This document shows positions 15,313-58,136 of a DNA stretch of 64,000 nucleotides, piece by piece. The translations under genes were made by a program, and so were the position numbers. Below the pieces are notes generated by a model. It made no database searches and had not been told where the DNA came from. It was given only the letters and a program-made list of their open reading frames with translations. The stretch's first letter is position 1. Every line of letters starts with the position of its first letter. The DNA is from an uncultured bacterium (GTDB taxonomy: Bacteria; Acidobacteriota; Aminicenantia; UBA2199): NCBI GenBank assembly GCA_965603365.1, contig CBFDCR010000014.1, positions 14,183 through 78,182 on the forward strand, given 5' to 3'.

Positions 15313-16634
15313 CTTTGTCCTCCGTTTATTTGAACACCTGAGATCTTCTCTAATCCCGCCAGGGCGATGGAATAATTGTAGACCGCCTGCAGGTAGGCGA
15401 CCTTTGCCTGGGTGAGTTCGTTATACGAGGCATTCAATTCCAGGATGGAGATCATGCCCTCTTGATAATTGAGTTCGGCAATCCGCACCCCCTCCTGGGC
15501 GGTCTCGGTATTCTTTTCCCCGGTCAGGATATTCTCATACTCCTGGCCTATAGTCAATACCAGGTTCTGCACCTGCAGCCGGGTGGCATCGTCCAACTCC
15601 TTAGCCCTCAATTTCATCATCTTCTTCATCACCCGCAGCTCCCCCACCTGGCCACTGCGCTTCAGACCCGTAAAAATCGGGAAACTGATACCCAGGTTGA
15701 TGGTGTAAAAATCCTCCCAGTTATCCTTACGCAGCTTTAACAGATCTGAACGGTAGCTGTAACTGGCAATGATGGAGAAATCGGGCACGAATTGGGCATA
15801 GGCGATCTTGAGTAAATTATTCACCTTCTTCGCTTCCATCTCCATCTGTTTGATTTCAGAACGATTTTGCAAGGCCCTCTGGATGAATTCAGACACCTCC
15901 AGTTCATGCCGGTCATAACTCAGTTTCCCCTGGATGTTTAGCTCGGTACTCTCGGGCAGCGCCAGCATGATCTTCAAATTGAACAGCGACAGTTCCAGCA
16001 TCTTGCGGGCATTGAGAATATTGGGCTTAATCGCGGATGCAGTCAACTCCGCCCGCAGCAGGTCGTATTGGGACACCATGCCCAGTTCAAACCGCTCTTT
16101 GACATTCTTATAATTATTCTCTGCCAGGTCCAGGACCTCCTGGTGGGCCTTGAGCAGCTCCTCCAGCACCAGGATATTGTTGAACACCTTCTTGACATTC
16201 AGGGTCACCTCATCCCGGGTATTCCGCTCCTTCTCCCGGGAAATCTTGAGATCCAGCCGGGCATTCCGGAAGGCGTGCCATATCTTGCCGCCGGTAAATA
16301 CCGGCTGCACGATCTGCAAGGTGAATTCGTAATCTTTGGTAAAATCGAGGGTGATGCGCTGCGGCTCGCCGCCGGGAACCATGGGGGGCATCTCCAGGAC
16401 CATCAACTTTTCATCCAGATTTTTACTCCCCCCCAGGGTCACCTGGGGCAAGAAGCCCATGTTCTGCATTACGCGGTATTTAGATTGCTTTACCCCCTGC
16501 TGGCTGATCAGGTAGTTGTTGTTGTTTTGCAGTGCCAGCGAGATGGCCTGGTCCAATGTGAGATCCATCTTCTCTTGAGGGTAGGCAAATTGACATAACC
16601 CAGTGATCAAAACGATGATCCAAAACTTTTTCAT
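15309..16634 (-). CDS. TolC-family outer-membrane efflux protein
   Basis: Signal peptide plus two OEP repeats. The ATG at 16634 (MKKFWIIVL) has GGAGG 5 nt upstream; the track start at 16646 is TTG. Confidence 0.85.
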   Translation of the reverse strand: MKKFWIIVLITGLCQFAYPQEKMDLTLDQAISLALQNNNNYLISQQGVKQSKYRVMQNMGFLPQVTLGGSKNLDEKLMVLEMPPMVPGGEPQRITLDFTKDYEFTLQIVQPVFTGGKIWHAFRNARLDLKISREKERNTRDEVTLNVKKVFNNILVLEELLKAHQEVLDLAENNYKNVKERFELGMVSQYDLLRAELTASAIKPNILNARKMLELSLFNLKIMLALPESTELNIQGKLSYDRHELEVSEFIQRALQNRSEIKQMEMEAKKVNNLLKIAYAQFVPDFSIIASYSYRSDLLKLRKDNWEDFYTINLGISFPIFTGLKRSGQVGELRVMKKMMKLRAKELDDATRLQVQNLVLTIGQEYENILTGEKNTETAQEGVRIAELNYQEGMISILELNASYNELTQAKVAYLQAVYNYSIALAGLEKISGVQINGGQR

Positions 16635-16676
16635 GTGTGCCTCCAAGAGTATATCTTTTCCAAAAACATATTCAAT

Positions 16677-17297
16677 TTATCCTCCTGTTGAATCCTTAAA
16701 AATGCCATCCGTTAAGATTCCCATGATGCTGTCGGTAAAAAATTCTAGATCGAAGCCGGCCGACTGCTCCTCGCTCATGATATGGCCCAGGGCGTACTCG
16801 CCGATGATGCCGGTCACAAAATAGGCCATCATTTCAACCGGGATATCGCTGCGTATGCACCCCTCTTGCCGACCGGTTTCGATAAAATCCTTCATGACCT
16901 TCACCCGCTCTTTTTTTCTCTCCATGAGACGCTTAAATACCCCGGAATCCTCCTTTTCGAAGGCTTCAAAAAACATGCGGGATTCGTAGAAGACAATCTT
17001 CAAGATGCCCCTGTTGGCGCTGATATGATCGAGCAGCGTGGCGATCAGGCTCTTTAATCTCTGGGGGAACGGTTTTTTTTCCGTTAGAATCGGTTTGATG
17101 AGTTCATTGATTTCGCTGTTGGAGGCATCCACGACAGCCCGGAAGATGTCGTCCTTGCCGGAAAAATAGTTGTAGAGGGTGGGCTTGGATACAGCGGCGG
17201 CCGCGGCAATCTCCTCGATGGTGGTGGCGCTGTAGCCCTTCTGGCCGAAGATGGTCCTGGCTTTTTCAATAATAAAATTCCGTACAGCCTCTTTCAA
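16677..17297 (-). CDS. TetR/AcrR-family transcriptional regulator
   Basis: TetR HTH (GYSATTIEEIAAAAAVSKPTLYNYFSGKDDIF). TTG start with GGAGGT 8 nt upstream. Lies upstream of the RND operon. Confidence 0.85.
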   Translation of the reverse strand: MKEAVRNFIIEKARTIFGQKGYSATTIEEIAAAAAVSKPTLYNYFSGKDDIFRAVVDASNSEINELIKPILTEKKPFPQRLKSLIATLLDHISANRGILKIVFYESRMFFEAFEKEDSGVFKRLMERKKERVKVMKDFIETGRQEGCIRSDIPVEMMAYFVTGIIGEYALGHIMSEEQSAGFDLEFFTDSIMGILTDGIFKDSTGG

Positions 17298-44037: not shown

Positions 44038-45678
44038 ATGCCTTCATCACAAACAGGATCAAGATATGCGTCATCGTTTCGTCGGCAGTGCACGGCCCGG
44101 GCATTGATACTGGGTATTATCGGCTCGGTGGTGATTACCACCAGTTCCATGTACGTGGCCCTGCGCATGGGCAGTCTGCCCTGGCCCACCATCTTTGTGG
44201 CGGTGATGTCCATGGCAGTATTGAAACTACTGAAACACACCAACCTCAACGAGATCAACGTGGCCCACACCGCCATGTCCTCGGGCAGCATGGTAGCCGG
44301 GGGACTGGCCTTTACCATCCCGGGAATCTGGATGGTGAATCCCAACGCCCAGGTGAGCCTGTTGTCGCTGCTGGCAGTCACGGTGTCGGGAACCCTCCTG
44401 GGTGTCCTATTTACCGCCGCCATCCGCAAGTACTTTATCGAAGAAGAGAGGCTGCCCTTCCCCATCGGCAAGGCCGCGGCAGAAACCGTGCTGGCCGGGG
44501 ATGAAGGAGGACGGAAGGCCCGGACACTGTTTTCCTCACTGGGGTTCACGGCGGTATTTGTGGCCCTGCGGGACGGTTTCAAGTTGATCCCCGGGGCCCT
44601 TTCCTGGCCCGGCCTGGCCACCAGGAATATATTTGTCGGCCTCTGGCTCTCCCCCATGGCCCTGGCCATCGGTTATATTATCGGGCCGCTGTTTACCGGC
44701 GTGTGGTTCCTGGGGGCCGTGATATCACACCTGTTTATCGTGCCGCTGGGTCTTGCCGCTGGCTGGTTCACTGATATAGCCGCGGCCAATGCCTTCAAAG
44801 ACAGCCTGGGCATCGGGCTGATGATCGGCACCGGCCTGGGTATACTATTCAAAGGCATGATCCGGCGGGCCCGGGAGATCTACGGGCCGATCATCAACAA
44901 AAAACGGGCTGAAGGCCGCAGCAGCCTGGTTCTCAAAATTTCGCCCCTCCTGCTGACAGCGGTGGCGTTTTTGCTGACAGTCTTCACCGGCATGGGGGTC
45001 TGGGTGAGTATCATCACCATCGCCGGTGTCTGGCTCACCACGGCCATGGCCGCCTCCATCACCGGCCAGACCGGTATTAATCCCATGGAGATCTTCGGCA
45101 TACTGGTATTACTGGCGGCCAGGGCCATCACCGGTATCGGCGGGCCGGAGGCTTTTTTTGTGGCCGGGGTGGTGGCGGTGGCCTGCGGCCTTACCGGGGA
45201 TGTGCTCAACGATTTCAAATCGGGGCATATTTTAAAAACCAGTCCCAGGGCCCAGATTGCGGCCGAGGCTGCCGGCGGCCTGGTGGGGGCTGTTGTGTCG
45301 GTCCTGGTTCTGCTGGCCATGCTCAAGGCCTTTGGCGCAGTCGGGCCGGGCAGCGAATTGATTGCACCCCAGGCCTATGCGGTATCGACAATGGCCACCG
45401 GCCTGCCCCACACCGGGGCCTTCTTCTTCGGCCTGGCCATCGGCCTGACACTTTACCTGTTCAATGTACCGGGCATGACATTGGGGCTGGGGGTATTTCT
45501 GCCCATGAAGATATCCGCCACCGTGTTTTTGGGCGGCCTGTTGGGCCTTATATTTAAAAAACGGCTGGCCCGCAGCCATCAAAACGATCACATTGCCATC
45601 ATCGCCGCCGGCCTGTTAGGGGGCGAAGGCATCGCCGGTGTCCTCATCGCCCTCCTCCACCTCCTCACCCCGGGTTAA
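44038..45678 (+). CDS. OPT-family oligopeptide transporter
   Basis: About 546 aa and about 15 TM helices. N-terminal CTARALILGIIGSVVITTSSMYVALRMG pattern. The ATG at 44038 is preferred over the GTG at 44017. Confidence 0.75.
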   Translation: MPSSQTGSRYASSFRRQCTARALILGIIGSVVITTSSMYVALRMGSLPWPTIFVAVMSMAVLKLLKHTNLNEINVAHTAMSSGSMVAGGLAFTIPGIWMVNPNAQVSLLSLLAVTVSGTLLGVLFTAAIRKYFIEEERLPFPIGKAAAETVLAGDEGGRKARTLFSSLGFTAVFVALRDGFKLIPGALSWPGLATRNIFVGLWLSPMALAIGYIIGPLFTGVWFLGAVISHLFIVPLGLAAGWFTDIAAANAFKDSLGIGLMIGTGLGILFKGMIRRAREIYGPIINKKRAEGRSSLVLKISPLLLTAVAFLLTVFTGMGVWVSIITIAGVWLTTAMAASITGQTGINPMEIFGILVLLAARAITGIGGPEAFFVAGVVAVACGLTGDVLNDFKSGHILKTSPRAQIAAEAAGGLVGAVVSVLVLLAMLKAFGAVGPGSELIAPQAYAVSTMATGLPHTGAFFFGLAIGLTLYLFNVPGMTLGLGVFLPMKISATVFLGGLLGLIFKKRLARSHQNDHIAIIAAGLLGGEGIAGVLIALLHLLTPG

Positions 45679-45701
45679 ATAGAGATAATGGTAATCCCGG
45701 C

Positions 45702-46331
45702 TTAACGGTTACAATATTTATTTAATTCGGTTACCAGTTGGTGGACCGTAGTGGATGGATTGTCTTTTCCCGGATTCGGGGGATTGTAGCGGTTTAACAG
45801 CCTTTCGGCATTTTTTATTGCTTCTTTCTGCTTGTTTAACAATTCCCGGTACATGGATGGATGATTCTTTTTATAGGGATGGTTTAAAAGCTGAGAAAGT
45901 TTCTCTATATATTGTTGCCTGGACATGGCCGTCTGGTAATAATGAAAGTGCAGCAGGTACCACAACTCGAAGGCCTCGTTGGAGTATGCGACCTTAATGC
46001 CCTGCCTAACGGCAAATGTGATGGCTTCACTAAAATTCTCCAGGGTGAAACCATTGCGATCGAATACGCACCACACTTGATCGTAAACCTCCTCATTGAT
46101 TCGGGCCCTGTCTCTGATCGCCAATGCCTTTCTTACCAGATTCACGGTATTATCCCCGGCTCCGATGACCTTGACTGTTGCCGAACTCAGCCGAAAAGAG
46201 TTAAAATAATTCGGTTCCGTTTTTTGCCCCTCGCAAACGATCAGAAAACTCTTTGGCGGCCTGCCTCTAAGCCTCGATTTTCTCTTAAGCGATCTGTTTT
46301 TTTTCTTCCAGAATAGGTTATCCGTTCCCAT
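45702..46331 (-). CDS. RloB-family (Toprim-like) protein
   Basis: FLIVCEGQKTEPNYFNSF motif, 209 aa. TAATG overlap with the upstream ATPase gene. Confidence 0.85.
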   Translation of the reverse strand: MGTDNLFWKKKNRSLKRKSRLRGRPPKSFLIVCEGQKTEPNYFNSFRLSSATVKVIGAGDNTVNLVRKALAIRDRARINEEVYDQVWCVFDRNGFTLENFSEAITFAVRQGIKVAYSNEAFELWYLLHFHYYQTAMSRQQYIEKLSQLLNHPYKKNHPSMYRELLNKQKEAIKNAERLLNRYNPPNPGKDNPSTTVHQLVTELNKYCNR

Positions 46332-47584
46332 TAAACCTTATCATTATCAGTGCTGTCCTCAAACAGAGATTCAATATTACCGATAAACGGGATGGCTCCG
46401 TATTTTCCCATGATGTAATCTTTATTGAATGAGGCATCCTTGCGGACTTTGTATTCCTCCAGGGAGTAAAGTTCCGACGCCCCATATTCATCTTTCTGGA
46501 TAAACCAGATCTGGTCTCTCCTGAAAAATTGATTGGACAGGATGTTGGTATCATGGCTGACGAATATGAGCTGTGATTTGGGCCTCCAGGCGTTATCTTT
46601 TTTTGGTTTGTAATGATGAAACATCTCGATGAGTGCCCTCGTTAAAAGAGGATGAAATTTCGATGTGAGTTCGTCTATTACCAACACATCGTCATTTTTT
46701 AAAGCTTGATAAATGGGCTGTGAGAGTTCGAAAAGAGCCTGAGTCCCGGCCGATTCGTCTCTAAGAAGGTCGAACTTTTCCTCCGATAACGGGTTGTTAT
46801 GCTGATCGTATATTTGATGTATAACCCTATAACAGGATGACTGGTCATATACCCTGCCATCGTTTCGATCCTTCCAAATATCTTCCTTCTTGATGTTTTT
46901 TAATCCCATATCGGCAACCTTTAAAAGTTTTAGTACAAATTCCTTGAATTCATGATGCTCAAGTTCATAATCACACCAACAATCCGATTCAATATCAATA
47001 ACAATAACAAGATGATCGAACCATTCCAATATCTTTTTGGCGGTCTGACCATTAAATTGATCGACCACAGAAAGGAAAAGGGCGTTTGCCCTTGTCTTGC
47101 TTGCTAATCCTTTTCCTTCTTTAAAACCGGGACCTATCTTAATTTGATCTTTTTCTCTGGTAAAAAGGGTGGCCTCCCTGATGGTGGGAACATAATAGAG
47201 CCATTCATGGTAAACCCGTTCCCTGTCTACCTGGAATCCATATCTATAGCGTATCCCGTCAATTAAAAAAGTAACCTCAAAGGTCGAAGGCACGGTCTTT
47301 GTTTCAGTACTTAATCGAAATTCATCAACCTTTTTTATTTTGTTTGCAGAACTTTCCTTAGAAGAAGTTAATACAAGCTCCTTCATTAATTTAAGGGCTT
47401 TAACCAGGTTCGATTTTCCACTGGCATTGGCCCCATAAAGGGCAGCACTTTTTAGCAGTCTCAGCTTATCGTTCACCCGGATAGTGTTGGTATCACGATG
47501 CTCTCTGTCTGCTGAAGCCACCATGCTCAGGGTAACAATATCCTTGAAGGAGAGGAAATTTCCTACTTTAAATTCTATCAACAT
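46331..47584 (-). CDS. AAA_21/ABC-type ATPase (RloA / OLD-ATPase-like)
   Basis: MLIEFKVGNFLSFKD start, Walker A GANASGKSNL, and C-terminal LVIDELTSKFHP and QLIFVSHDT. The ATG at 47584 follows GAGAGG. AT-rich. Confidence 0.85.
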   Translation of the reverse strand: MLIEFKVGNFLSFKDIVTLSMVASADREHRDTNTIRVNDKLRLLKSAALYGANASGKSNLVKALKLMKELVLTSSKESSANKIKKVDEFRLSTETKTVPSTFEVTFLIDGIRYRYGFQVDRERVYHEWLYYVPTIREATLFTREKDQIKIGPGFKEGKGLASKTRANALFLSVVDQFNGQTAKKILEWFDHLVIVIDIESDCWCDYELEHHEFKEFVLKLLKVADMGLKNIKKEDIWKDRNDGRVYDQSSCYRVIHQIYDQHNNPLSEEKFDLLRDESAGTQALFELSQPIYQALKNDDVLVIDELTSKFHPLLTRALIEMFHHYKPKKDNAWRPKSQLIFVSHDTNILSNQFFRRDQIWFIQKDEYGASELYSLEEYKVRKDASFNKDYIMGKYGAIPFIGNIESLFEDSTDNDKV

Positions 47585-47717
47585 CTTTAGCCTCTCTTTG
47601 TTCTTATAATCTATTATCAAATTAAAGTCAAGTTTTTTGAGAAAATTCCTCAAAAAAGTGTCTTTTGCAACCAAATCCTGCTGGCGAATAGGGCAAAGGA
47701 GTGCGGTTTGTTCTCAT

Positions 47718-48557
47718 TTAAATCGGCATGGGGGGGTGATTTTCGGTATGGCGGTCGATTTTCAGGGAGGGGAGATCTATGGTGACATAGGTGAAATCTC
47801 GCAGTTGGCCCGGCTGGATGGAGAGGGTGTCGCCAATTTTGTTAAACCAACTGCCGGTCATCAGCGGCGACTCGTGGATGTGGCCGTGAAGCGACAGCAG
47901 GGGTTGATGGGTCTCCAGGAACCGATACACGGCTATAGAACCCACCTCCCGGCCGTCGGAGCAGCAATCCAGGCCCACAAAGGCGGGGGGCATGTGCATC
48001 ACATATATACTGCGCCGAAAATCCGTCGGTTTTACCAACTGCCCCAACTCATCCTGGAGTGTGGCTAAGGTCAGGGCATAACTGAACCAATCGTCGATAT
48101 AGGCCAGGCCGTCTTCCGTAGACAATACTCCACGGCCATGCTGCTGGGGAAAGATAAAATCCCGGGTATCCATGCGGCAGCGGTCCTTCAACTGGAAGGG
48201 ATAATCCGCCACCCAGTTCATGCCGATAAATTCGTATCCCCCAATTTCCACCCTCTTCTGGGCCAGGTCTTTAACAAAGGCGTATTTCCCGCAGGTCGCC
48301 TCGTACAACGAATCGAATATCCGCAAGTCGTCGTTGCCCAGGCAGCCCAGGTAATAAATTCCCGCACTCTCTAATTTCTTAAAATAGGGGCCCAGGTATT
48401 CGACGATAAACTGGCTCTGCTTTTTCAACGCGCCGCCAAAGGGCAGGGCATCGCCGCCGTTGATTACGATGTCGGCCGCCATCTCCCGGGCCAGTTCAAA
48501 AAGCCGCTCGTATTTCCACCAACTGCCGTGCAGATCAGTCACATAAATGATTGTCAT
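47718..48557 (-). CDS. calcineurin-like metallophosphoesterase
   Basis: YVTDLHG, GGDA, GNDD, HMPP and GHIHE metal-ligand motifs. 279 aa. Confidence 0.8.
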   Translation of the reverse strand: MTIIYVTDLHGSWWKYERLFELAREMAADIVINGGDALPFGGALKKQSQFIVEYLGPYFKKLESAGIYYLGCLGNDDLRIFDSLYEATCGKYAFVKDLAQKRVEIGGYEFIGMNWVADYPFQLKDRCRMDTRDFIFPQQHGRGVLSTEDGLAYIDDWFSYALTLATLQDELGQLVKPTDFRRSIYVMHMPPAFVGLDCCSDGREVGSIAVYRFLETHQPLLSLHGHIHESPLMTGSWFNKIGDTLSIQPGQLRDFTYVTIDLPSLKIDRHTENHPPMPI

Positions 48558-48688
48558 CGTCCCAAAAAGAGTACCATTCTACACCATCGTACTCCCCAAC
48601 ACAAGAGCAAAACCAACCAGAACGAAACCGGAGAAGCGGGAACAGATCCCGGAATGCTGGATTTGTGGAATTATTTTTCTACAACTTA

Positions 48689-48717
48689 TTGAAATATTAG
48701 AATATTTCCTCTAAAAT
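48689..48717 (+). promoter_or_regulatory. sigma70-type promoter of the three-gene operon, with a palindrome in the spacer
   Basis: TTGAAA (48689-48694), 17-nt spacer, TAAAAT (48712-48717). The spacer contains AAATATT-AG-AATATTT. Confidence 0.55.
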
Positions 48718-48784
48718 TAGACCTATGGAAAAAACGATCTTCCCGTCAGTTGTGCATAAAAATGGCTGGTAAATTAAAAGTAAA

Positions 48785-49342
48785 ATGAGGGTAAATAATT
48801 TTAAATCTCTTAAAGGGAACAAAGACCTTTTAAAGGCCAAAAAAGTGGGCATTTTAGCATCCAGGCACATTCTCCCCGGTCTTACCCAATTTGTGATGGA
48901 GTCTATGCAAAGGCTAGCCAGATTGGAAACCGTATTCATTGGCGGCTGGCATGCACCGATTGAAAAAGAGATTCATAAATTTTTGGTTAAGCGTCAAGTA
49001 TCACACATTCATGTTTGTGCCCAAACCGTTGATAAAACATACTGTGCTTTAAACCCAACTAAAACCCTGTTTATATCGCACTGCCATCCCGGTATTACCC
49101 GCATATCGAGGGAAAATGCTCTTAAAGGAAACAGTGTCTTATGTGAATTATCGGACGTTATGTTAATCCCCTGGTTAGATCCTTATGGCAAAACGCATAA
49201 AATTGTTCTTGACTTCTGTAACAGGATGCCGGTCTTTGTTTTTGATACAGAATTCAATTCTGGTCTAATTGAGGCAGGGGCCCTCTCTTATCATTGCAAC
49301 AAAGTAATATCTACTCTGGAGAACGATCATGCGAACAATTGA
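48785..49342 (+). CDS. DprA/Smf-like (SLOG superfamily) Rossmann protein
   Basis: 185 aa. VGILASR...TVFIGGWHAPIEKEIH...SRENALKGNSVLCELSDVMLIPW...GKT...PVFVFD follows the DprA Rossmann pattern without its flanking DNA-binding domains. 14-nt overlap with the next gene. Confidence 0.6.
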   Translation: MRVNNFKSLKGNKDLLKAKKVGILASRHILPGLTQFVMESMQRLARLETVFIGGWHAPIEKEIHKFLVKRQVSHIHVCAQTVDKTYCALNPTKTLFISHCHPGITRISRENALKGNSVLCELSDVMLIPWLDPYGKTHKIVLDFCNRMPVFVFDTEFNSGLIEAGALSYHCNKVISTLENDHANN

Positions 49343-52300
49343 AGAGATCATAAAAACTCAATCCCATCTGGTGGTGCGCCAGATTCGAGAGGCGACGAGC
49401 TGGACCGAATCCGAAGAGGATTTACGAATAGCAACAGAAAGAATACTGGGAGAATTCAAAAACCAGGCAAAATTACAAGATTTTAGAGGACATCACGAGG
49501 TTACGATTGGCAAGGGAAGAGCAGATTCTGTTTACAATTACGTGGTTATAGAATATAAAAAACCCAAACGGCTAAGTGAATCAAATACTGCCCCGGGAAA
49601 CCGGGAAGTTATCGAGCAGTTAAAGACACGCCTGTATGACCTGGAAAAAGAAGAGAGGAGAAAAATCACGAAATTATTCGGCATCGGTTTTGATGGCCAC
49701 TGGTTTATCTTTGTTCGGTTCCGAAATAACAGTTGGGAAATCAGCAATCCTCTTCCTGTCACCCCCCAGACTACAGAGAGATTCTTACGGGCATTGTTAT
49801 CGCTTGCCGCAACCGGTAAAGCATTTCAACCGGCCTATCTTTCCGGGGACTTTGGTGCCGATTCGCTGTTATCGGGGGAAGGTATAAAGACATTTTATAA
49901 AGCCATCACCAACTCCGAAAATCCCAAAGCACAGGTTCTTTTTGATGAGTGGAAAATTCTTTTCGGTGAAGTGGGGGGCTATGACGTAAAAGCCTTTGAG
50001 GAAAAAATACAGGTTCTGGCCGATTTCTATCATATCAAGGGGAAACCCGATCCTTCCGCACTCCTCTTCTCCGTACATACCTATTATGCCCTATTCATGA
50101 AGTTGCTGGCTGCCGAAATCATGAACTACTTTAATCCCATGTTCCCATCTATTCTCAGTCGTCTTCATCAGATTGCCACCGGAGAAAAGCTTTTGCGCGA
50201 ACTGCGAGAACTGGAAAAGGGTGGAATTTACCGACAGATGGGGATTACGAACTTCTTAGAGGGCGATATGTTTTTATGGTATCTGGAGGCCTGGGATACC
50301 AAAGATAAAAAAGGAGAAAAGATTGATCTGGAGCGAGTCATCCGTGACATGATCGGTAGATTGGATGAATATGACCCGGTAACCCTCTCTATCGAACCCG
50401 GCGAATCGAGAGACCTGCTTAAAGAACTGTACCAGAACCTCTTCCCCCAAAAAATACGGCACGATCTCGGCGAATATTATACTCCAGATTGGCTTGCCCA
50501 ATGGGTGATTGAAAAAGTCGGGATCAAAGGAAATCCGGATGAACGCATACTCGACCCGGCATGCGGCTCCGGCACATTCCTGGTGCTGGCGATTCAGAAG
50601 GTACGTGAATTTGCCGACGAAAAAATGATACCGGAAAAGGAGCTTTTAAAAAAGATTAATGAAAATGTGATCGGCTTTGACTTGAATCCTCTGGCAGTTA
50701 TCGCCGCCCGGCTCAATTATCTCATCGCCATCAGAGATTTAATTAAATACGGAAATCAGATCGAAATCCCCGTCTACCTGTGCGATTCGGTCATGACACC
50801 ATCCGAATATGGAGAACTTTTTACAAATAACAAAGGCGTTGCTGCCCCGGGCGGAAGACGAGGGGCAGTGAAGGAGCTTAAAACCAGCGCTGAAACCTTT
50901 TACATCCCTACAGAGATCGCTGCCTCCCGCGGACTGGTGGCCAGATATGCCGAAGAGTTGGAATACTGTGTACAGCATGAATTTAGTCCCGAAGAGTTCA
51001 TCCAGAGGCTAAAGGAAGAAGACCTGCCGGTTCTTCATGAAGATTTGCACAAAGATCTGTTCAATATGTTAACCAGTCTAAATAAACGGGACAAAAACGG
51101 TATCTGGGCGCGCATTATAAAGAATGCCTTTGCCCCCCTCTTCATCCAGCCGGTGGACTACGTGATCGGTAATCCACCATGGGTAAACTGGGAGAGCCTG
51201 CCGGGAGAGTACCGGCAGGACAGTAAAGAGTTATGGTTTAAATACAACCTGTTTCCCCACAAAGGCATGGATGCCATCCTGGGTAAAGGGAAGAAAGATA
51301 TTTCTATGATTATGACGTATGTTGCCATGGACAAATATTTGAAGGCTCACGGCCGTCTGGGATTCGTAATTACCCAATCGGTGTTTAAGACCTCCGGGGC
51401 TGGCCAGGGTTTTCGACGATTTCGGATCAATAACGAAATCCCCATCGCACCGGTGTACTGCGACGACATGGTAAAAATCAAACCCTTTGAAGCGGCCAAT
51501 CGCACCGCAGTCATCGTGCTGGAACGGGACAAAGAGTTAGAGTACCCGGTTCCCTACACGGTCTGGAAAAAGAAGGAGCGACAGAAAATAGACAGCCACA
51601 CCCCGCTATCGGCTGTGCTGGAGAGGACGCTGAGAGATCCATTTGTAGGAAAACCGGTGGATGGCAGGGACAAAACTTCCGCCTGGATAACAGGCAAAAC
51701 GAAGGCACTCGAGGCCGTAAACAAAGTACTCGGGAAATCCGCCTACAAAGCCCATGAAGGTGTAAATACCGGTGGTGCCAATGGAGTCTATTGGGTCGAA
51801 ATCCTGCAGGAGTTGGCGGAAGGCAAGGTACTGGTGCGAAACATCACCGAAGGGGCCAAACGAAAAGTCAGGCAGGCAGAAGCGGTGATTGAAAAGGATT
51901 TACTGTATCCCCTGGTGCGGGGGCGCGACGTCAGACGCTGGCAGGCCAAACCTTCGGCCCACATCATCATGGTACAGGACCCCCAAAAACGGCGGGGCAT
52001 CGACGAATCCATAATGAAACAAAAATACCCCCTCACTTATACTTATCTTAAACAATTTGAGAGAGTATTAAAGTCACGGGCAGCGTACAGGCGCTATTTC
52101 AAAGAGAGCGATCCGTTTTATTCAATGTTCGATGTGGGCAGCTATACATTGGCCCCCTGGAAAGTAAGCTGGCGATACATTGCCAGTGAATTCACCTGTA
52201 GTGTGATATCTGCCGATCAAGATTATAGCAACAATCTTATTATCCCGGATCACCGTTTAATTGTGGTCTCCTTTCAAACCCCAGAAGAAGCCCACTACCT

Positions 52301-52601
52301 ATGCGCAGTATTAAATTCAGCACCGTCACGCTATCTGGTCAATAGTTATGTGATAAGCACCCAAATATCTACCCATGTTCTCCATAATATCTATGTCCCC
52401 CGATTTGATCTATCTGTTCCCGGCCACCAGGAACTGGCAAGTCTCTCAAAACAGGCCCACCAGGTTGCGAAGACAGGAGATGGCACCCGCCTGAGAAAAG
52501 TGGAAGCGGAAATCGATAAGCTTACAGCCCCATTATGGAATCTCACCGCGAAAGAGTTACGAGACATCCAGGCATCGTTGAAAGCAATAGTGAGTCAGTA
52601 A
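49329..52601 (+). CDS. single-chain restriction-modification enzyme: PD-(D/E)xK nuclease + N6-adenine MTase + TaqI-like specificity domain (type IIG-like)
   Basis: HsdR-N/Mrr-like GRADSVYNYVVIEYKKP (49518-49562) and GFDGHWFIF. Motif I DPACGSGTFL (50553). Motif IV NPPW (51171-51182). C-terminal TRD-like ~350 aa. Confidence 0.8.
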   Translation: MRTIEEIIKTQSHLVVRQIREATSWTESEEDLRIATERILGEFKNQAKLQDFRGHHEVTIGKGRADSVYNYVVIEYKKPKRLSESNTAPGNREVIEQLKTRLYDLEKEERRKITKLFGIGFDGHWFIFVRFRNNSWEISNPLPVTPQTTERFLRALLSLAATGKAFQPAYLSGDFGADSLLSGEGIKTFYKAITNSENPKAQVLFDEWKILFGEVGGYDVKAFEEKIQVLADFYHIKGKPDPSALLFSVHTYYALFMKLLAAEIMNYFNPMFPSILSRLHQIATGEKLLRELRELEKGGIYRQMGITNFLEGDMFLWYLEAWDTKDKKGEKIDLERVIRDMIGRLDEYDPVTLSIEPGESRDLLKELYQNLFPQKIRHDLGEYYTPDWLAQWVIEKVGIKGNPDERILDPACGSGTFLVLAIQKVREFADEKMIPEKELLKKINENVIGFDLNPLAVIAARLNYLIAIRDLIKYGNQIEIPVYLCDSVMTPSEYGELFTNNKGVAAPGGRRGAVKELKTSAETFYIPTEIAASRGLVARYAEELEYCVQHEFSPEEFIQRLKEEDLPVLHEDLHKDLFNMLTSLNKRDKNGIWARIIKNAFAPLFIQPVDYVIGNPPWVNWESLPGEYRQDSKELWFKYNLFPHKGMDAILGKGKKDISMIMTYVAMDKYLKAHGRLGFVITQSVFKTSGAGQGFRRFRINNEIPIAPVYCDDMVKIKPFEAANRTAVIVLERDKELEYPVPYTVWKKKERQKIDSHTPLSAVLERTLRDPFVGKPVDGRDKTSAWITGKTKALEAVNKVLGKSAYKAHEGVNTGGANGVYWVEILQELAEGKVLVRNITEGAKRKVRQAEAVIEKDLLYPLVRGRDVRRWQAKPSAHIIMVQDPQKRRGIDESIMKQKYPLTYTYLKQFERVLKSRAAYRRYFKESDPFYSMFDVGSYTLAPWKVSWRYIASEFTCSVISADQDYSNNLIIPDHRLIVVSFQTPEEAHYLCAVLNSAPSRYLVNSYVISTQISTHVLHNIYVPRFDLSVPGHQELASLSKQAHQVAKTGDGTRLRKVEAEIDKLTAPLWNLTAKELRDIQASLKAIVSQ

Positions 52602-52602
52602 A

Positions 52603-55278
52603 ATGGATGAAACGGACTTTCGGGAATCGGATATCGTTGTTTCACAGGACGATCTGCTGCGGCCCTACGGCAAGGCGCGCCTCATTAAAATCAAAAGAGG
52701 GTTGGCCGAAGCAGAGTACGTACCCCATATTTTCAGCCGGCCGCCCTACTTTACCCATATCAAATTTCTCCGACTGGAAGAGACCGAGAAGTTCCTTTCA
52801 CCGGTTGACAGGTTACAAAATCGCCGATTCGAAGAAACCTGGAAATTTGACATGCGGCAAATGGCCGCCAGGTTTCTCACGGCCAACAAGGGCGGTCAGC
52901 TTTCCTGTATCCGCGCCGAATTGTTACCCCATCAAATCTTCACCGCCTATGAAGTCATCAAAAGTAAACGGCGCCGCTTTCTGCTGGCCCACGCAGGGAA
53001 AACGGGGAAAATCATAGAAGCGGGTCTGATCTGGGAGGCCCTTTTCCAGCGGAGAGTGGCAGACCGTACCCTGATCATTTGCCCCGCCGGATTAATGCTG
53101 CAGTGGCAGGAGGAGATAGAGGAAAAATTCGGTACCTTTTTCGAAATATTTAACCGCAACTTCCTTACCATCAATCCCCGCATGTGGGACTTAAAAACCA
53201 CCGTCATCGTCTCTATCGAAGGTTTGAAGCAGGCAGAGGCAAAACTGCTAAAAGATCGCCAGTGGGATTTAATTATAATCGACGAGGCCCACAAACTGAG
53301 TGCCGGAGAGCATAGATCCACATTGGCGGAGCAGCTAAAAGACCACACCGATGCCCTGATTTTACTTACCGCCACCCCTCATCAGGGAGAAGACAACCAC
53401 GCCCGTTTTATCAATTTGATGAAACTGCTGGATGAAGAGATCGACTTTAATCCCCTGTTCCATGGAGATCTCCCTCTTTTTAAAACGAAGACCGACCCGG
53501 GCAAGGTTCCCTTTTATCAGTATATCCTGGGTACCCCCAAAATGGCCGTGACCGACGCCTCGGGCCGCAAACTCCTCAAAGGGCGCAAAACCCATAATTA
53601 TACATTTGAGATGTTCCCTGACGAAAATGAGTTTTATAAGGCAGTAACAAATTATATTAAAAAAGGCTATTCCTGTCTCGAACGGCTCAGGGATAAACAG
53701 GATCGCCAGGCCCTCTGCCTTGTCCTCTCCCTATTCCAGAAAATCGCGGCCAGCAGCACCGCCGCCATCAAAAATTCACTCCGCAACCGCAAGCTGGCCC
53801 TGGAATACAAGAACGGTATCGTAAGAGAAAAAAGTAAATTTGAAGATGAACGGTTCAGCGGAGAATACGAAGAGTCTCAAGTTCCATTTGAATTCGAAAA
53901 ACAATTTATCAAAGACGAAGTCAAAGAGATCGATTCCCTCCTTGACATGGAAGTCCGGCAGGATACTAAATCCGTTGAACTTCTAAACCTCATCCACTCA
54001 ATATTTGACCCGATAGCAGATGAAAAAGAGGGCAAAATTGTCATTTTTACCGAATATCTCGCCACCCAGAAGCACCTGGTGGACATACTGGAACATGAAT
54101 ATGGCCAGGATTGTACAATTACCATAAACGGCAACCTGGATGTGGACCAGCGGCGTCTCAATCAAAGAGAATTTCGGGATAATCCCAGGATTCATTTTCT
54201 CGTATCTACCGAATCCGGGGGAGAAGGCGGTAACCTTCAGTGTTCCCACATCCTGTTTAACTACGACATGCCCTGGAATCCGAGGCGGATCGAGCAGCGG
54301 GTGAGAAGAGTCTACCGATATGGCCAGGCGCAGGTGGTACAAATCCACAATTTTCGAACAAAAGGGACAAGCGAAGATAAAATTTATGGGTATATAGAGG
54401 AAAAAATCGAGCGGGCAGCCAGCGCACTCACCAGGGTGACCGGTGAAGATGTGGAAGGGATCATGGCCGCCATGTACGACGAAATGGAAAATGAGATCGA
54501 TTACAATGAAATATACAAAAGGTCTCTGGTTGAAGGCGATATCGAAGAAGCAAAAGAGGAGATCGACCGGGGCGTTGCCCGGGCAAAGCGGGCGTATGAA
54601 TTAGCCGCAGAGAAATTGTTTAAGGATGTCTCCGCTTATTCACCCGATTATTATGAAAAATACGTGCAGTCAGACATAACATTACAGGATCTGGCAGTAT
54701 TCACCAGGAGATATCTGGAATCCAAACGAAAAAAGTCACAAAAAACAGACGGTATTTTTTCTTTTATCACTCCCGAAGAATTCTGTGATAGAGAAGTTAA
54801 AGACAGGTATGAAAATGTCACCTTCGACCGCAAAAAAGCCGGCGATCAGCCGGAATTAGAATTACTCGCCCTGGGTCATCCATTCATAGACAAAATGGTC
54901 AACTCATGCGGAACCGTCGATTTTGGTGGGTATGCAACCACTCGAATCATAAAAAATAAAAAATTTTCCGGCACAAAAGGAATTCAATTTAATTATGTTG
55001 TCTCTCATCGTATCGAACGAGGTGAAAAAGAAGAATATCTTTTTGATATGTATACCATTTTTATCGATGAATCTTACCAGATCAACGACGATATAGCCCA
55101 TATCTGCCGGAGATACTATTCGGAAAATGACCATCCAATTGTGGACAACGGAATCGATGTCGATATAAAAAAAGCCGAAAAAATTGCCGAGAATTATTTG
55201 CGTAAAAATATCGACATTATCCGGGGCTGGCAAGAGGATGTAGAATTATTGAATGCAGCCCTTGTCCAGGTACAATAA
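52603..55278 (+). CDS. SNF2-family (RapA/HepA-like) helicase/translocase
   Basis: LIIIDEAHKL, ILLTATPHQG, FLVSTESGGEGGNLQ and NYDMPWNPRRIEQRVRRVYRYGQ. Motif I is atypical (AHAGKTGKIIEAG). It starts 1 nt after the R-M gene stop. Confidence 0.85.
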   Translation: MDETDFRESDIVVSQDDLLRPYGKARLIKIKRGLAEAEYVPHIFSRPPYFTHIKFLRLEETEKFLSPVDRLQNRRFEETWKFDMRQMAARFLTANKGGQLSCIRAELLPHQIFTAYEVIKSKRRRFLLAHAGKTGKIIEAGLIWEALFQRRVADRTLIICPAGLMLQWQEEIEEKFGTFFEIFNRNFLTINPRMWDLKTTVIVSIEGLKQAEAKLLKDRQWDLIIIDEAHKLSAGEHRSTLAEQLKDHTDALILLTATPHQGEDNHARFINLMKLLDEEIDFNPLFHGDLPLFKTKTDPGKVPFYQYILGTPKMAVTDASGRKLLKGRKTHNYTFEMFPDENEFYKAVTNYIKKGYSCLERLRDKQDRQALCLVLSLFQKIAASSTAAIKNSLRNRKLALEYKNGIVREKSKFEDERFSGEYEESQVPFEFEKQFIKDEVKEIDSLLDMEVRQDTKSVELLNLIHSIFDPIADEKEGKIVIFTEYLATQKHLVDILEHEYGQDCTITINGNLDVDQRRLNQREFRDNPRIHFLVSTESGGEGGNLQCSHILFNYDMPWNPRRIEQRVRRVYRYGQAQVVQIHNFRTKGTSEDKIYGYIEEKIERAASALTRVTGEDVEGIMAAMYDEMENEIDYNEIYKRSLVEGDIEEAKEEIDRGVARAKRAYELAAEKLFKDVSAYSPDYYEKYVQSDITLQDLAVFTRRYLESKRKKSQKTDGIFSFITPEEFCDREVKDRYENVTFDRKKAGDQPELELLALGHPFIDKMVNSCGTVDFGGYATTRIIKNKKFSGTKGIQFNYVVSHRIERGEKEEYLFDMYTIFIDESYQINDDIAHICRRYYSENDHPIVDNGIDVDIKKAEKIAENYLRKNIDIIRGWQEDVELLNAALVQVQ

Positions 55279-55289
55279 GTTTCAAAGTC

Positions 55290-55562
55290 GGTCAAATCGG
55301 GTCTAGTGGCGGGCCAGTTGGATGGCTTTGTCGAGGAATTCGTCGCGGCCCTCTTTCACCCCTTTGATGGTTCTGTTGAGGGGGATGTGGGGGATGATGC
55401 CCACGCCGTGAGGTGAGGCTCCAGGGGTTCTAACTTCCAGGAGCGGTTGGCGTATGTGACCTGTTCATAATCGGGATAGGCGATTTTCCACCAACTGCCG
55501 TGCAGATCAGTCACATAAATGATTGTCATCATGCCAAAAAAAACACCATTCTACACTATCTA
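55290..55562 (-). repeat. chimeric duplicate: S41-peptidase 3' fragment fused to the metallophosphoesterase 5' fragment plus its upstream DNA
   Basis: 55290-55410 matches 58304-58425 with about 3 differences. 55411-55488 matches 58634-58707 with about 3 differences; the intervening ~208 nt are missing. 55487-55562 matches 48512-48590, with the first 46 nt identical. Confidence 0.9.
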
Positions 55563-55576
55563 AGATGATCTAAGGA

Positions 55577-55951
55577 TTATCTCTTTTCAGTATACTTAAC
55601 CCCTTCAATGCCTTCAAAATCAGCATCTTGTGTCCACAGGACGGCACCGAGGAGCAAAGAGGTTGCCAATATTATACTATCTGCCATGGGCAATTGATGA
55701 TCCACCGAGATTCGGGCCGCATGAATAGAAATTTCGGTATCAAGATCTATGACCTTGCCCTGCCGCATCAATGCTACCGCTTCAAGGGCTTGATTCTCGT
55801 CTCTCTGCTGAAGTACTCTCTTGAAAACTTCATATAAAGTAATGGAAGGGACCAATAACTCGGCAACATTTTCAATAGCAGGGATGAAGAATTCACAATT
55901 TGGACCATCGGAAAAATATTCCAGCCAACCACAAGAATCAACAATATTCAT
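55577..55951 (-). CDS. PIN-domain VapC toxin
   Basis: MNIVDSCGWLEYF..., ADSIILATS and WTQDADF motifs. ATGA overlap with the antitoxin gene. Confidence 0.85.
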   Translation of the reverse strand: MNIVDSCGWLEYFSDGPNCEFFIPAIENVAELLVPSITLYEVFKRVLQQRDENQALEAVALMRQGKVIDLDTEISIHAARISVDHQLPMADSIILATSLLLGAVLWTQDADFEGIEGVKYTEKR

Positions 55952-56154: not shown

Positions 56155-56295
56155 ACGTTCTCCTTATCGATCAAGCTTTCGTATTACAAATAAATATATT
56201 ATCACATAATTCCCCCCATTTCAAACACAATTCCTGCCCGCCGACTTCCTATCCTTCCTACTTTCTTGTTGACAGGGAAATTACTTTTATTTATA

Positions 56296-56556
56296 ATGAA
56301 TTTGATGGCAATACAAATTCACCCCCATGCTCTGGATCGAATGAAAGAACGCGGCACCAATGCAGAAGAGATAAAAAAAACCATTGAATTTGGAGAAAGT
56401 TTCCCGGCAAAATTCGGCAGAACCGGCTTTAGACGCAATTTCCCATTTAACAGCTATTGGAATCAAAAGAAATACAACACCAAACAGGTTGAAGTTATTG
56501 CCATCCGGGAAGACAATAATTGGATCGCAGTAACGGTATTAGTGAAATACTTTTAG
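56296..56556 (+). CDS. DUF4258-family protein (putative toxin)
   Basis: IHPHALDRMKERGTNAEEIKKTIEFGE...VEVIAIREDNNWIAVTVL pattern. The ATG at 56296 is preferred; the track start at 56266 is TTG. Confidence 0.65.
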   Translation: MNLMAIQIHPHALDRMKERGTNAEEIKKTIEFGESFPAKFGRTGFRRNFPFNSYWNQKKYNTKQVEVIAIREDNNWIAVTVLVKYF

Positions 56557-56566
56557 GAGAAAAAAA

Positions 56567-56800
56567 ATGAAAATAAGTTACGATCCCAAATACAACATTG
56601 CTTATATCAAAGTGAGAGATAAAGCCGCTGACGTCGAAACCCTTCGAATCAGCGATGAAATCAACATTGATCTTACACCTGATGGGAGGGTTTACGGCAT
56701 TGAATTGATGAATGCCAACGAACAACTGGATTTTGAGAAAACCAGGGAATTGATATTCATCAATGAATCCACCGGCCAAAAAGCAGAGCTGAGGATATAA
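56567..56800 (+). CDS. DUF2283-family protein (putative antitoxin)
   Basis: MKISYDPKYNIAYIKV...IDLTPDGRVYGIELMNANE pattern. Confidence 0.75.
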   Translation: MKISYDPKYNIAYIKVRDKAADVETLRISDEINIDLTPDGRVYGIELMNANEQLDFEKTRELIFINESTGQKAELRI

Positions 56801-57071
56801 TTTGACGAGTACTTAATCTTTGCCTGTCACCTATCTCCTACCTACTAATAGCTAAAACAAAGACAGCCAGATTTCCCCTTGTATGGGACGCAGTTCTGCG
56901 TTCCCCACAACAACCTTTCAGAGGAAAACAAGGGGGACGAAAAAAATGAAAAATTGTCAAAAGGAAAAAAGAATTTGCGCTTCTGAAATTCAAATTTGTT
57001 TGCTCCAGACTGGAAAAGACTGGATATTATTGAATTGTTAAATGTTCGCCTTCATGCACCTTAAGGCAATT

Positions 57072-58136
57072 CTACTTTTTATCTTTGCCTGTATCACTAT
57101 ATAATTTTCGGATATCTCCATATTCTAAAATATAATCATAAATATAATAACCTCCAACTTTTGAATTAAAATAATGCCCGGGACTCCTACCTGGCCATCT
57201 CCCAATAAAAGCGAACTTCTCGATTTTCTCGGGCCAGAGAAAACTATTATAACTTCCGATATATTTGTCATCAATATAAAACTTAACGAAATCATAATTT
57301 TTTGACCACATTACTGTAAATAAATGCCAGCCTATATCGATCTTTTTATCAGTTGAAATTGCATCCCTTCTTATCCCATCACTACTACCAAACCTCCAAT
57401 AGATTTTGCCAGTTTCTTTGTTATAGAATTTGCCTATATGACAGGCATTGATATATATTTTTTGAAATTGCGGATGACCATCTTCATCCTCATATTCAAT
57501 TTTTTTCATCCGCCCCTTATTCCCAGAGTGACTTAAAATGTATTGATTATCTCTATTCTTAGTGTTATAGTGGTCATCGTTAATATAAGCCCAAATAGAA
57601 AATGTTCCCTCATTTCGCCCTAAAAAATCACACGGTATCCGCAATTCATTTCCTTTATATGCAGTTATATCATGCGTCTCTTCATCGCTAATAAAAGGCT
57701 TTTTAAAATCATCCAAAAATTTTCGTAAATAATTCTCAAAATTCAAAATCCCATCAGAATTAGAAAACTCGTATTTATAATATCTATGTGCTTTCAAATC
57801 TGTGGGTACATCATCACCATTTTGAGTAATTAACAGAACCTTCTTATTTAAAGCATGAGCTAATCCTAATTCATAGAATACATTAGGATTTCGATTAGTC
57901 AAATCTGCAACGATAATCCCGGCCTGTTTAATTAGATTTGCAACACCTTGCATTATTGTTGTAGAAAACATATCATCCGCTTTTAGAATTTCATATCCAT
58001 ACTCTTCAAATATTGGTTTTAAAACTTTTTCAAAAATCAATATGTTTTTAAAAGGTAGAATAACAAAGGCCAATTTAGGCTTCACTGTTATTTCTTCATA
58101 TTCGAGCATGAAAAATTGAGTTTCTTGATAGTCCAT
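57072..58136 (-). CDS. NDT/TIR-like Rossmann domain fused to a LamG (ConA-like lectin) domain
   Basis: N-terminus: AFVILPF...ILKADDMF...IKQAGIIVADLTNRNPNVFYELGLAHALNKKVLLI. C-terminus: GTFSIWAYIN...WHLFTVMWSKNYDFVKFYIDDKYIGS...VGGYYIYDYILEYGDIRKLY. Markedly AT-rich. GGAGG before the ATG. Confidence 0.65.
   Translation of the reverse strand: MDYQETQFFMLEYEEITVKPKLAFVILPFKNILIFEKVLKPIFEEYGYEILKADDMFSTTIMQGVANLIKQAGIIVADLTNRNPNVFYELGLAHALNKKVLLITQNGDDVPTDLKAHRYYKYEFSNSDGILNFENYLRKFLDDFKKPFISDEETHDITAYKGNELRIPCDFLGRNEGTFSIWAYINDDHYNTKNRDNQYILSHSGNKGRMKKIEYEDEDGHPQFQKIYINACHIGKFYNKETGKIYWRFGSSDGIRRDAISTDKKIDIGWHLFTVMWSKNYDFVKFYIDDKYIGSYNSFLWPEKIEKFAFIGRWPGRSPGHYFNSKVGGYYIYDYILEYGDIRKLYSDTGKDKK

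Follow-up and report, generated by a model that had tools for sequence, protein, structure and literature searches.

The window analysed here is a 64,000-nucleotide (nt) stretch of DNA from an uncultured bacterium (GTDB lineage Bacteria; Acidobacteriota; Aminicenantia; UBA2199), taken from NCBI GenBank assembly GCA_965603365.1, contig CBFDCR010000014.1, positions 14,183 to 78,182 of the forward strand. Within the window, three co-directional genes, here called g1, g2 and g3, encode a DprA-like protein, a Type IIG restriction-modification (R-M) enzyme and a RapA-like SNF2 ATPase. Comparisons at the level of sequence indicate that this three-gene cassette is genuine and conserved, and that it represents a variant of helicase-coupled R-M-like immunity that apparently has no name. 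The three open reading frames (ORFs), taken from the ORF listing, and the site in front of them are as follows, in window coordinates.

48785-49342, + strand: g1, DprA-like protein, 185 amino acids (aa)
49329-52601, + strand: g2, Type IIG enzyme, 1090 aa
52603-55278, + strand: g3, RapA-like SNF2 ATPase, 891 aa
48689-48717, + strand: promoter-like TTGAAA-17 nt-TAAAAT, 10/12 matches, 68 nt upstream of the g1 start codon

An initial annotation, made from the sequence alone, had described three tightly packed genes behind one promoter-like site. The ORF listing bears out the packing: g1 shares 14 nt with g2, and a single nucleotide lies between g2 and g3. None of the three ORFs is truncated or interrupted by a stop or frameshift, and the g1/g2 overlap is compatible with translational coupling. 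The promoter-like site also exists and is the top + strand match within 48400-55700, but the region shows no excess of such sites over shuffled sequences (9 versus an expected 11.2 +/- 2.5), which leaves the promoter call at 48689-48717 position-consistent, unproven and indistinguishable from chance.

The protein encoded by the central gene, g2, matches the REBASE-derived PADLOC profile PDLC03630 (REase_MTase_IIG) with 1161.5 bits, residues 16-1086 aligning to profile positions 12-1097 of 1100. Pfam reports the domains N6_Mtase, Eco57I and MmeI_Mtase, together with a weak PDDEXK_9 match (E = 0.01). Motif reading and the alignment of relatives locate the nuclease and methyltransferase (MTase) motifs at the following positions.

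49515-49565, + strand: nuclease motif GRADSVYNYVVIEYKKP (D66 ... E75-x-K77)
50553-50582, + strand: MTase motif I, DPACGSGTFL, residues 409-418, binding S-adenosylmethionine (AdoMet)
51171-51182, + strand: MTase motif IV, NPPW, residues 615-618, catalytic

These motifs had been named in the initial annotation and are all present at the residues given there; an alignment of g2 with 26 relatives (48-79% identity) shows no variation at G63, D66, E75 or K77, nor anywhere in DPACGSGTF or NPPW. In an AlphaFold2 (AF2) model of g2, with a predicted local distance difference test score (pLDDT) of 79, CamA and M.BseCI superpose on the MTase and target recognition domain (TRD), and whole-length fold alignment returns BrxX/PglX, DrdV, MmeI and BpuSI. 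The sequence and fold matches of the TRD to M.BseCI and CamA lend indirect support to the TaqI-like specificity region proposed earlier. At the N-terminus, the model places the E-x-K in strand 71-76, with low pLDDT around residues 54-68, and a profile search of the PDB with the g2 alignment returned MTase domains only and no solved homologue for the N-terminal nuclease. The nuclease fold is thus predicted from motif conservation, in a part of the model that is locally of low confidence.

The domain order in g2 is a PD-ExK nuclease, a helical region, a gamma N6A-MTase and a TRD. With the full-length profile match, the N-terminal PD-(D/E)xK triad, and motifs I and IV followed by a TRD, g2 is by sequence a Type IIG enzyme, carrying every hallmark of single-chain site recognition, adenine methylation and PD-ExK cleavage. 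To our knowledge, characterised Type IIG enzymes need neither ATP nor partner proteins. The proposal that an R-M activity had been split over two genes was not upheld: g2 belongs to an ordinary Type IIG family of roughly 6,000 members, the remoter of which are solitary and presumably self-sufficient, and because such solitary relatives exist, the helicase and DprA-like genes are add-ons and not the missing half of a split enzyme.

The third gene encodes the putative motor. Pfam identifies SNF2-rel_dom, Helicase_C and ResIII in g3, with a weak RapA_C-like match in the C-terminal region, and RapA structures are the top PDB sequence matches. The top PADLOC matches are BrxHI (299 bits), HmaA (259) and DrmD (225), while g3 lies below the NCBIfam cut-offs for DrmD (NF038317; 259.5 bits versus 610), RapA (176 versus 576) and DpdE. 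Two motif regions, both placed with the alignment of homologues and the first also by motif reading, are central to its interpretation.

53281-53292, + strand: motif II, DEAH, residues 227-230, intact
52981-53025, + strand: motif I (Walker A) region, degenerate, LLAHAGKTGKIIEAG versus canonical LLADEVGLGKTIEAG

The protein also carries TATPHQ, STESGGEG and QRVRRVYRYGQ, so that motifs II, III, V and VI are present, in agreement with the intact DEAH box and motifs III, V and VI noted at first. What had been overlooked is the degeneracy of motif I, the core of which reads HAGKTGKI in the window versus the canonical DEVGLGKT. Among the homologous loci, which are designated here by L numbers, LLADEVGLGKTIEAG is motif I in L086, L084, L088, L004 and L013, and ADQVGPGKT takes its place in L001; these six, which are more distant than the sister strains, thus have GLGKT or GPGKT. 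Three sister-strain contigs (L171-L173; g3 98% and g2 99% identical to the window) read HAGNPEKT. Four of five residues differ between the KTGKI of the window and the NPEKT of the sisters, and neither keeps G-x-G-K-T. Between the window and L171 there are 6 nt substitutions within 18 nt at motif I, with identical flanks. The canonical Walker A (G-x-G-K-T) of an active SF2/SNF2 ATPase is therefore absent from the window g3. For the same pair of strains, g3 gives a ratio of nonsynonymous to synonymous substitution rates (dN/dS) of 0.61 over residues 1-320 and of 0.11 over residues 321-891, and g2 one of 0.29; these values rest on 3-18 substitutions per class. The g3 motor is probably inactive, or the motor layer relaxed or decaying, in the window lineage, and the degenerate Walker A casts doubt on translocation-coupled restriction in this genome. 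In L001 (6905-9610), the nearest trio that is not identical, the helicase (65% identical) has DDAH for DEAH, PCNP for PWNP and ESVGEG for ESGGEG; from these eroded motifs, the motor layer may be decaying in more than one lineage.

The first gene is recognised mainly by fold. On sequence profiles g1 scores poorly, with 22 bits on Pfam PF02481 (under the cut-off), 20.8 bits on PsyrA (PADLOC) and 18.2 bits on TIGR00732 (DprA) versus a cut-off of 191, and a PDB sequence search gave no match. An AF2 model built with the family alignment has a pLDDT of 94.4 and a predicted template modelling score (pTM) of 0.90, and its top Foldseek matches are the DprA structures 4ljl (H. pylori; E = 3e-10, TM 0.75) and 3uqz (S. 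pneumoniae; TM ~0.75), followed by ShosA 8zva and then by LOG and Moco-carrier SLOG proteins. The protein consists of the Rossmann domain only, without the SAM and winged-helix domains of competence DprA. On the evidence of this model, g1 is the DprA Rossmann (SLOG) core alone, as the initial annotation had it, and the weak PF02481 match, the AF2 model and the Foldseek run all agree. The fold and the GG-x-H-x-P-x-E and RN motifs are shared with DprA/Smf, the TM of ~0.75 holding for both HpDprA and SpDprA; the bare Rossmann domain, the profile score and its place in a defence cassette instead of a competence locus set g1 apart from competence DprA/Smf. An exhaustive HMMER search of 1.84 billion proteins found 94 representative clusters related to g1, two of them close. 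Two positions in g1 stand out in the family alignment.

48941-48970, + strand: GGWHAPIEKE, family signature GG(F/W)HSPxE, E60 invariant
49127-49129, + strand: codon 115, Gly versus the near-invariant Arg of the 'RN' motif

Arginine occupies position 115 in >90% of the family and in the sister strains, and the glycine is unique to the window strain. The degenerate, freely evolving P-loop of g3 and the loss of this near-invariant Arg in g1 together suggest that the window copy is partly inactive, its motor-dependent layer probably switched off or decaying and the Type IIG catalytic motifs intact.

In the usual path of R-M decay, restriction is lost and methylation retained. The cassette could be at such a stage, with restriction disabled through the g3 P-loop and perhaps g1 R115G, and with mainly the adenine MTase activity left, to set an orphan-like epigenetic mark or give some residual protection; if the motor were needed for cutting, loss of motif I would shed restriction and keep methylation. 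The degeneration of Walker A in two different ways among 98%-identical strains, the relaxed constraint on g3 residues 1-320, the private R115G change and the intactness of all g2 MTase motifs are what such decay would leave. The same cassette nevertheless retains three full-length ORFs, an intact D66/E75/K77 nuclease triad and purifying selection on the C-terminal two-thirds of g3 (the dN/dS of 0.11 given above), and an autonomous g2, like its solitary relatives, would restrict without g3. We regard decay of the whole system as a serious but unlikely explanation.

That the three genes form a unit is indicated by their recurrence. The trio was found in five further lineages (g2 52-79% identical), in the same gene order and among unrelated neighbours. 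The loci, with the identity of g2 to the window protein, are listed here.

L001/L002: trio, g2 79%; flanked by PmbA/TldD and sulfatase genes
L003: g2 80% over the part on the contig, which ends inside g2
L086/L087: trio, g2 72%
L084/L085: trio, g2 65%; between EPSP synthase and tRNA synthetase genes
L088: trio, g2 54%; three defence-type genes between g2 and g3
L176: trio, g2 52%

Across relatives, the identities of g2 and g3 to the window proteins drop in step (79/65, 72/64, 65/62, 54/54, 52/48 and 49/45), and g1 diverges faster (61, 50, 42, 27 and 26%). The trio genes thus diverge in step and move jointly between unrelated genomic sites. The claim that a nuclease-MTase-TRD protein, an SNF2 ATPase and a DprA/SLOG-like protein form a conserved unit is supported by this recurrence in six lineages, the window included. 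Within that sub-clade (g2 52-100%), g1 homologues are co-conserved with the MTase/helicase pair, which the initial annotation had named as a point on which its reading could fail. Since the same three genes recur between unrelated flanks, they form a complete mobile cassette.

Among relatives at 42-50% g2 identity, smaller sets are found. L175 (an archaeon), L177, L004, L013 and L178 carry g2 and g3 without the DprA-like gene, and L174, L005, L012, L180 and L181 carry g2 alone. Plasmid homologues of g2 (~30% identity) are solitary 'N-6 DNA methylase' genes. No DprA-like gene without a helicase was seen among the g2-clade loci surveyed. By gene content, occurrence is nested, from the solitary IIG gene to IIG plus SNF2 to DprA-like plus IIG plus SNF2. 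In L004, from a Pyrinomonadaceae metagenome-assembled genome, a 172-aa ORF (3155-3673) occupies the upstream slot and runs 8 nt into the g2 homologue. It was rejected as a g1 counterpart (BLASTP E = 11 versus g1, no Pfam or PADLOC match), and tblastn of g1 on the genome-collection loci of g2 relatives found no DprA-like gene. Judged from this locus, the slot upstream of g2 is not always DprA-like.

In L088, the genes between g2 and g3 (11237-17149) encode an ABC/AAA_15 ATPase (AriA/NsnB/AbiLi-like), a 686-aa protein without a family match and a Schlafen/AlbA_2 plus HATPase_c_4 protein. These three are candidate embedded defence genes, and the insertion resembles the embedding of defence genes inside multi-gene defence systems that is described by Payne et al. 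(10.1101/2024.01.29.577857).

Remoter co-conservation of g1 homologues was found beside a second helicase and methylase backbone. Metagenome contigs were scanned with a profile of the distant 'GGFHSPxE' DprA-like branch (25-28% identical to g1), and the neighbouring ORFs were clustered. A ~1100-aa IIG/PglX-like methylase lies upstream of the DprA-like gene in 15 of the 18 loci with at least 4.5 kb upstream, and in 13 of these 18 a ~1125-aa PLD(HKD)-SNF2 helicase also lies upstream of the methylase. Between methylase and DprA-like gene there are 0-5 variable genes, for example those for an OLD-type ATPase-TOPRIM or an Mrr_N protein. This methylase (PDLC03628, 1212 bits) belongs to a different REBASE-type family from g2, to which it has motif-level similarity only; the helicase resembles g3 in the ATPase core only, and the nuclease (PLD) is carried on the helicase and not on the methylase. 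In both backbones the DprA-like gene is on the methylase side. From these gene neighbourhoods, one DprA-like family is found beside two non-orthologous backbones, each of an SNF2 helicase, a large N6A methylase and a nuclease. The models of PADLOC v2 and NCBIfam r20 name neither arrangement. The operon of PLD(HKD)-SNF2, MTase, variable genes and DprA-like gene (~210 aa) recurs in L097-L158 generally and in L096 (356-13267), where an HSP70-TPR protein, a UvrD-like helicase and a ZorA-like gene follow.

The geometry of these loci bears on whether g1 and g3 might instead constitute a helicase/DprA-like module of the PsyrTA/RqlHI kind, placed around or beside a stand-alone Type IIG methylase much as PsyrTA is inside BREX loci. 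PsyrTA/RqlHI and ShosTA pair a DprA-like antitoxin or sensor with a helicase or PRTase toxin, and a small Rossmann protein of this type beside a helicase, in defence surroundings, is what the cassette has in common with them; g1 and its relatives match the models for PsyrA and ShosA, and the structure 8zva of ShosA can be superposed on the g1 model. In the Halomonas BREX locus, PsyrT/PsyrA stand directly beside PglX (PMC11232893). The solitary g2 relatives, and the restriction of the DprA-like gene to g2-clade loci with a helicase, would also suit two separate modules. However, the helicase partner in PsyrTA/RqlHI is RecQ-like and that of the cassette is SNF2/RapA-like, and the IIG gene is always interposed between the g1-type and helicase genes, which are never adjacent in either the window-type or the PLD-SNF2-type trios. 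The 14-nt overlap ties g1 to g2, the pair of g2 and g3 occurs without g1 and co-diverges, and the window g1 reaches only 20.8 bits on PsyrA. An independent module of this kind strikes us as improbable.

The cassette was also compared with the other systems that share its components, and membership of BREX, DISARM, Hma/BREX-related (BR) systems and Type ISP was rejected in each case, the defining genes or architecture being absent and scores lying under cut-offs. Type IIG/IIL enzymes (Eco57I, MmeI, DrdV, BpuSI class) share the domain order of g2, and the remoter g2 relatives are solitary as is usual for the class; the g2 sub-clade differs in being fixed beside an SNF2 ATPase and, in some members, a DprA-like protein as well. 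The motor of Type ISP enzymes is HsdR-like. In LlaGI and LlaBIII, the same four activities (Mrr/PD-ExK nuclease, SF2 motor, gamma MTase and TRD) are joined in a single polypeptide with the motor between nuclease and MTase, whereas here the motor is a separate gene after the MTase-TRD, and a third, DprA-like gene is present. The ISP-like reading given at first does not extend to g3, which is RapA-like SNF2 and not HsdR-type, although Type ISP is a plausible functional analogue for translocation-coupled cleavage (PMC3874165).

Class 1 DISARM (DrmD with DrmMI) and BREX type 3 (BrxH with PglXI) resemble the cassette in that a RapA-like SNF2 helicase accompanies a large N6A MTase with the PglX/IIG fold, but DrmA/B/C, PglZ, BrxC, BrxA and BrxB are absent here and g2 has its own nuclease. 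For BREX, PglZ and BrxC/PglY are missing nearby and PglX models score 40-45 bits on g2 versus cut-offs of at least 400. For class 1 DISARM, there is no DrmA (DUF1998-associated helicase), DrmB or DrmC (PLD), an absence recognised in the initial annotation and confirmed by the gene content of ~4 kb upstream and ~5 kb downstream of the cassette and of the related loci with Pfam assignments, and g3 falls under the DrmD equivalog cut-off. The Hma/DUF499 BREX-related systems (PMC8565338, PMC12839542, PMC11232893; definitions from PMC11232893 and PMC12839542) likewise bring together an SNF2 helicase, a methylase and a third protein, with embedded defence genes being common, and the metagenomic PLD-SNF2 loci share with Type-2 BR an HKD(PLD)-SNF2 effector and an N6-MTase. 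Their third component is the DUF499/BrxC-like HmaC, and the methylase of the Halomonas system, HmaB, is of DUF1156 type; in the cassette a DprA-like protein takes the third place, and no DUF499/BrxC-like ATPase (HmaC) or DUF1156 methylase (HmaB) is found in the cassette or in homologous loci. The earlier failure to match the locus to a named system therefore stands for the trio, which has no PADLOC or NCBIfam model, and not for g2 alone, which is a clean Type IIG match. In the literature searched there was no description of the DprA-like, IIG and SNF2 trio or of the second trio, with thin subscription coverage, so that an earlier description elsewhere is possible.

Directly downstream of g3 lies a feature that could suggest the loss of genes from a larger system.

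55294-55560, - strand: chimeric pseudogene or recombination scar, recognised from repeat families D1-D3 at 92-97% identity and from a translation with fused, frameshifted frames

The recombination scar reported initially is real and is a chimera of copies of two nearby genes. One piece holds the first 45 nt (15 codons) and upstream region of the metallophosphoesterase gene (a copy of 48513-48588, 92% identical), and the other two are non-contiguous S41 peptidase fragments (copies of 58309-58425 and 58628-58707, 95-97% identical). The metallophosphoesterase gene is directly upstream of the cassette, and the S41 peptidase gene is ~3 kb downstream. The scar separates the R-M cassette from a toxin-antitoxin (TA)/TIR block and marks a recombination hotspot between the peptidase and phosphoesterase genes.

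The scar, together with BrxHI, HmaA and DrmD as the top PADLOC matches of g3 and the PglX/BrxX-like fold of g2, might be taken to mean that the cassette is a remnant or minimal BREX type 3 (PglXI with BrxH), class 1 DISARM (DrmMI with DrmD) or Hma/BREX-related system whose other genes were lost there. None of PglZ, BrxC, DrmA/B/C or DUF499 was found within ~4 kb upstream or ~5 kb downstream of the cassette in the window, nor in those trio and pair loci for which Pfam assignments of the called genes were available. Moreover, g3 scores 259 versus the DrmD cut-off of 610, g2 scores 40-45 bits on PglX models versus 1161 on the Type IIG profile, and g2 has a conserved PD-ExK nuclease, unlike PglX and DrmMI. 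The loss of further genes at the scar, raised in the initial annotation, is unlikely, as the identical trio and no other genes recur between unrelated flanks, and the scar need imply no lost components. A remnant of any of these systems is very improbable.

The cassette sits in a strain-variable defence island. Two genes upstream is an AbiL pair on the - strand (45702-47674), consisting of AbiLi (AAA_21 ATPase, 447 aa, 327 bits) and AbiLii (RloB, 209 aa). Between the genes for the OPT transporter and AbiLii, the sister strains have a BrnT/BrnA (CopG) toxin-antitoxin pair (L171 5657-6215); the pair is missing in the window, where only 23 nt separate these two genes (45678-45702). The downstream neighbours are a PIN/MazE pair, a DUF4258/DUF2283 pair and a TIR-like plus LamG protein. 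The block at 56266-58136, absent from L171 and L172, comprises the DUF4258/DUF2283 pair and a 354-aa protein that is TIR/nucleoside-deoxyribosyltransferase-like at its N-terminus and LamG-like at its C-terminus; the block lies in the lowest-GC kilobase of the window (32.5%). In the sister strain, the source gives the proteins of the cassette generic names ('DprA/Smf', 'type I R-M methylase subunit' and 'superfamily II helicase'). Synonymous divergence (dS) between the window and L171 is 0.01-0.04 in the cassette (48785-55278) and 0.11 in the metallophosphoesterase gene (47718-48557), a difference, based on small counts, that may reflect an exchange of the cassette between strains at a later date than the divergence of its flank.

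This chromosomal setting, beside AbiL, TA pairs and a TIR-like protein and not phage genes, also bears on a phage- or plasmid-borne origin. Some g2 relatives do occur on IMG/VR contigs, and an MTase-helicase combination could act in anti-restriction or self-protection as P1 DarB does. The cassette, though, consists of three separate genes with no DarB-like fusion, and its conserved nuclease triad argues for restriction. On genomic context and the triad we rejected the DarB-like reading, the probability of which we put close to nil.

Taken together, these observations lead us to favour, by a modest balance of judgement, the view that the three genes are an R-M-like defence cassette that spreads horizontally and has an autonomous Type IIG enzyme at its core, with the helicase and the DprA-like protein as partners. 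Several points weigh against it. The census covers ~20 loci, and short contigs are common in the metagenomes. Many relatives of g2 do without the helicase and DprA-like genes, which may therefore act independently of the Type IIG enzyme, and any physical interaction of g1, g2 and g3 is putative. The degenerate Walker A here and the DDAH of the L001 lineage indicate a motor that is weakly selected in at least 2 of the 6 trio lineages. Finally, because the two backbones share only motif-level MTase and helicase similarity, the DprA association could be convergent co-location in defence islands and not one mechanism. As for the translocation-coupled R-M with a SLOG/DprA partner that was first proposed, the conserved unit stands and the coupling is doubtful in this genome, Walker A being degenerate.

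On the evidence of gene content, the g2 sub-clade has gained a dedicated RapA-like SNF2 ATPase, and a subset of it a minimal DprA-like protein too. By analogy with Type I, Type ISP (PMC3874165), DISARM DrmD-DrmMI and BREX-3 BrxH-PglXI (PMC12839542), g3 would probably add ATP-driven translocation or protein-DNA remodelling to a site-bound Type IIG enzyme, and could thereby let distant enzyme molecules or unmodified sites communicate, or clear obstacles. Precedents for g1 come from DprA and its homologues. The DprA of H. pylori interacts with MTases, whose methylation it stimulates, and blocks cleavage by Type II restriction endonucleases (PMC3597690), ShosA is a DprA-like antitoxin that binds single-stranded DNA (ssDNA) and RecA (PMC12961424), and DprA homologues are antitoxins in shosTA, psyrTA and rqlHI, with a helicase partner in the latter two (PMC9122126). 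On these analogies, g1 would probably bind ssDNA or single-strand/double-strand junctions and tune restriction versus methylation, either protecting host DNA that is transiently unmodified or licensing attack on replicating or incoming invader DNA. The effect may run in either direction, host protection or invader licensing, the sequence being compatible with both.

A bolder proposal, which we hold tentatively and with the balance of our judgement against it, is that helicase-coupled methylase/nuclease immunity has a dedicated third subunit that has so far gone unrecognised, the minimal DprA-like protein, which would act as an ssDNA-sensing switch between methylation and destruction in both backbones. 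If true, this would define a DrmAB-less 'mini-DISARM' class and would link H. pylori DprA biochemistry and ShosA/PsyrA to restriction-modification. The interaction of H. pylori DprA with MTases and restriction endonucleases has been known since 2013 without a genomic counterpart, and DprA-like antitoxins (ShosA, PsyrA) are only now being explained mechanistically. The DprA-like family occurs beside two unrelated backbones, and its role is genetically testable in homologues with intact motifs. Current annotation tools would probably label the locus 'RM type IIG' and overlook both partners.

Type IIG enzymes are commonly treated as self-contained, ATP-independent R-M systems. If the favoured reading of a mobile cassette around an autonomous enzyme is true, a Type IIG sub-clade with its own SNF2 motor would represent another evolutionary route towards the motor-coupled immunity of Type I, ISP, DISARM and BREX-like systems, with its stages still visible as the solitary enzyme, the enzyme with a helicase, and this pair with a DprA-like protein. 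In the window lineage itself, the strain-variable degenerate Walker A offers a natural experiment to show if restriction, or the avoidance of self-toxicity, requires the motor.

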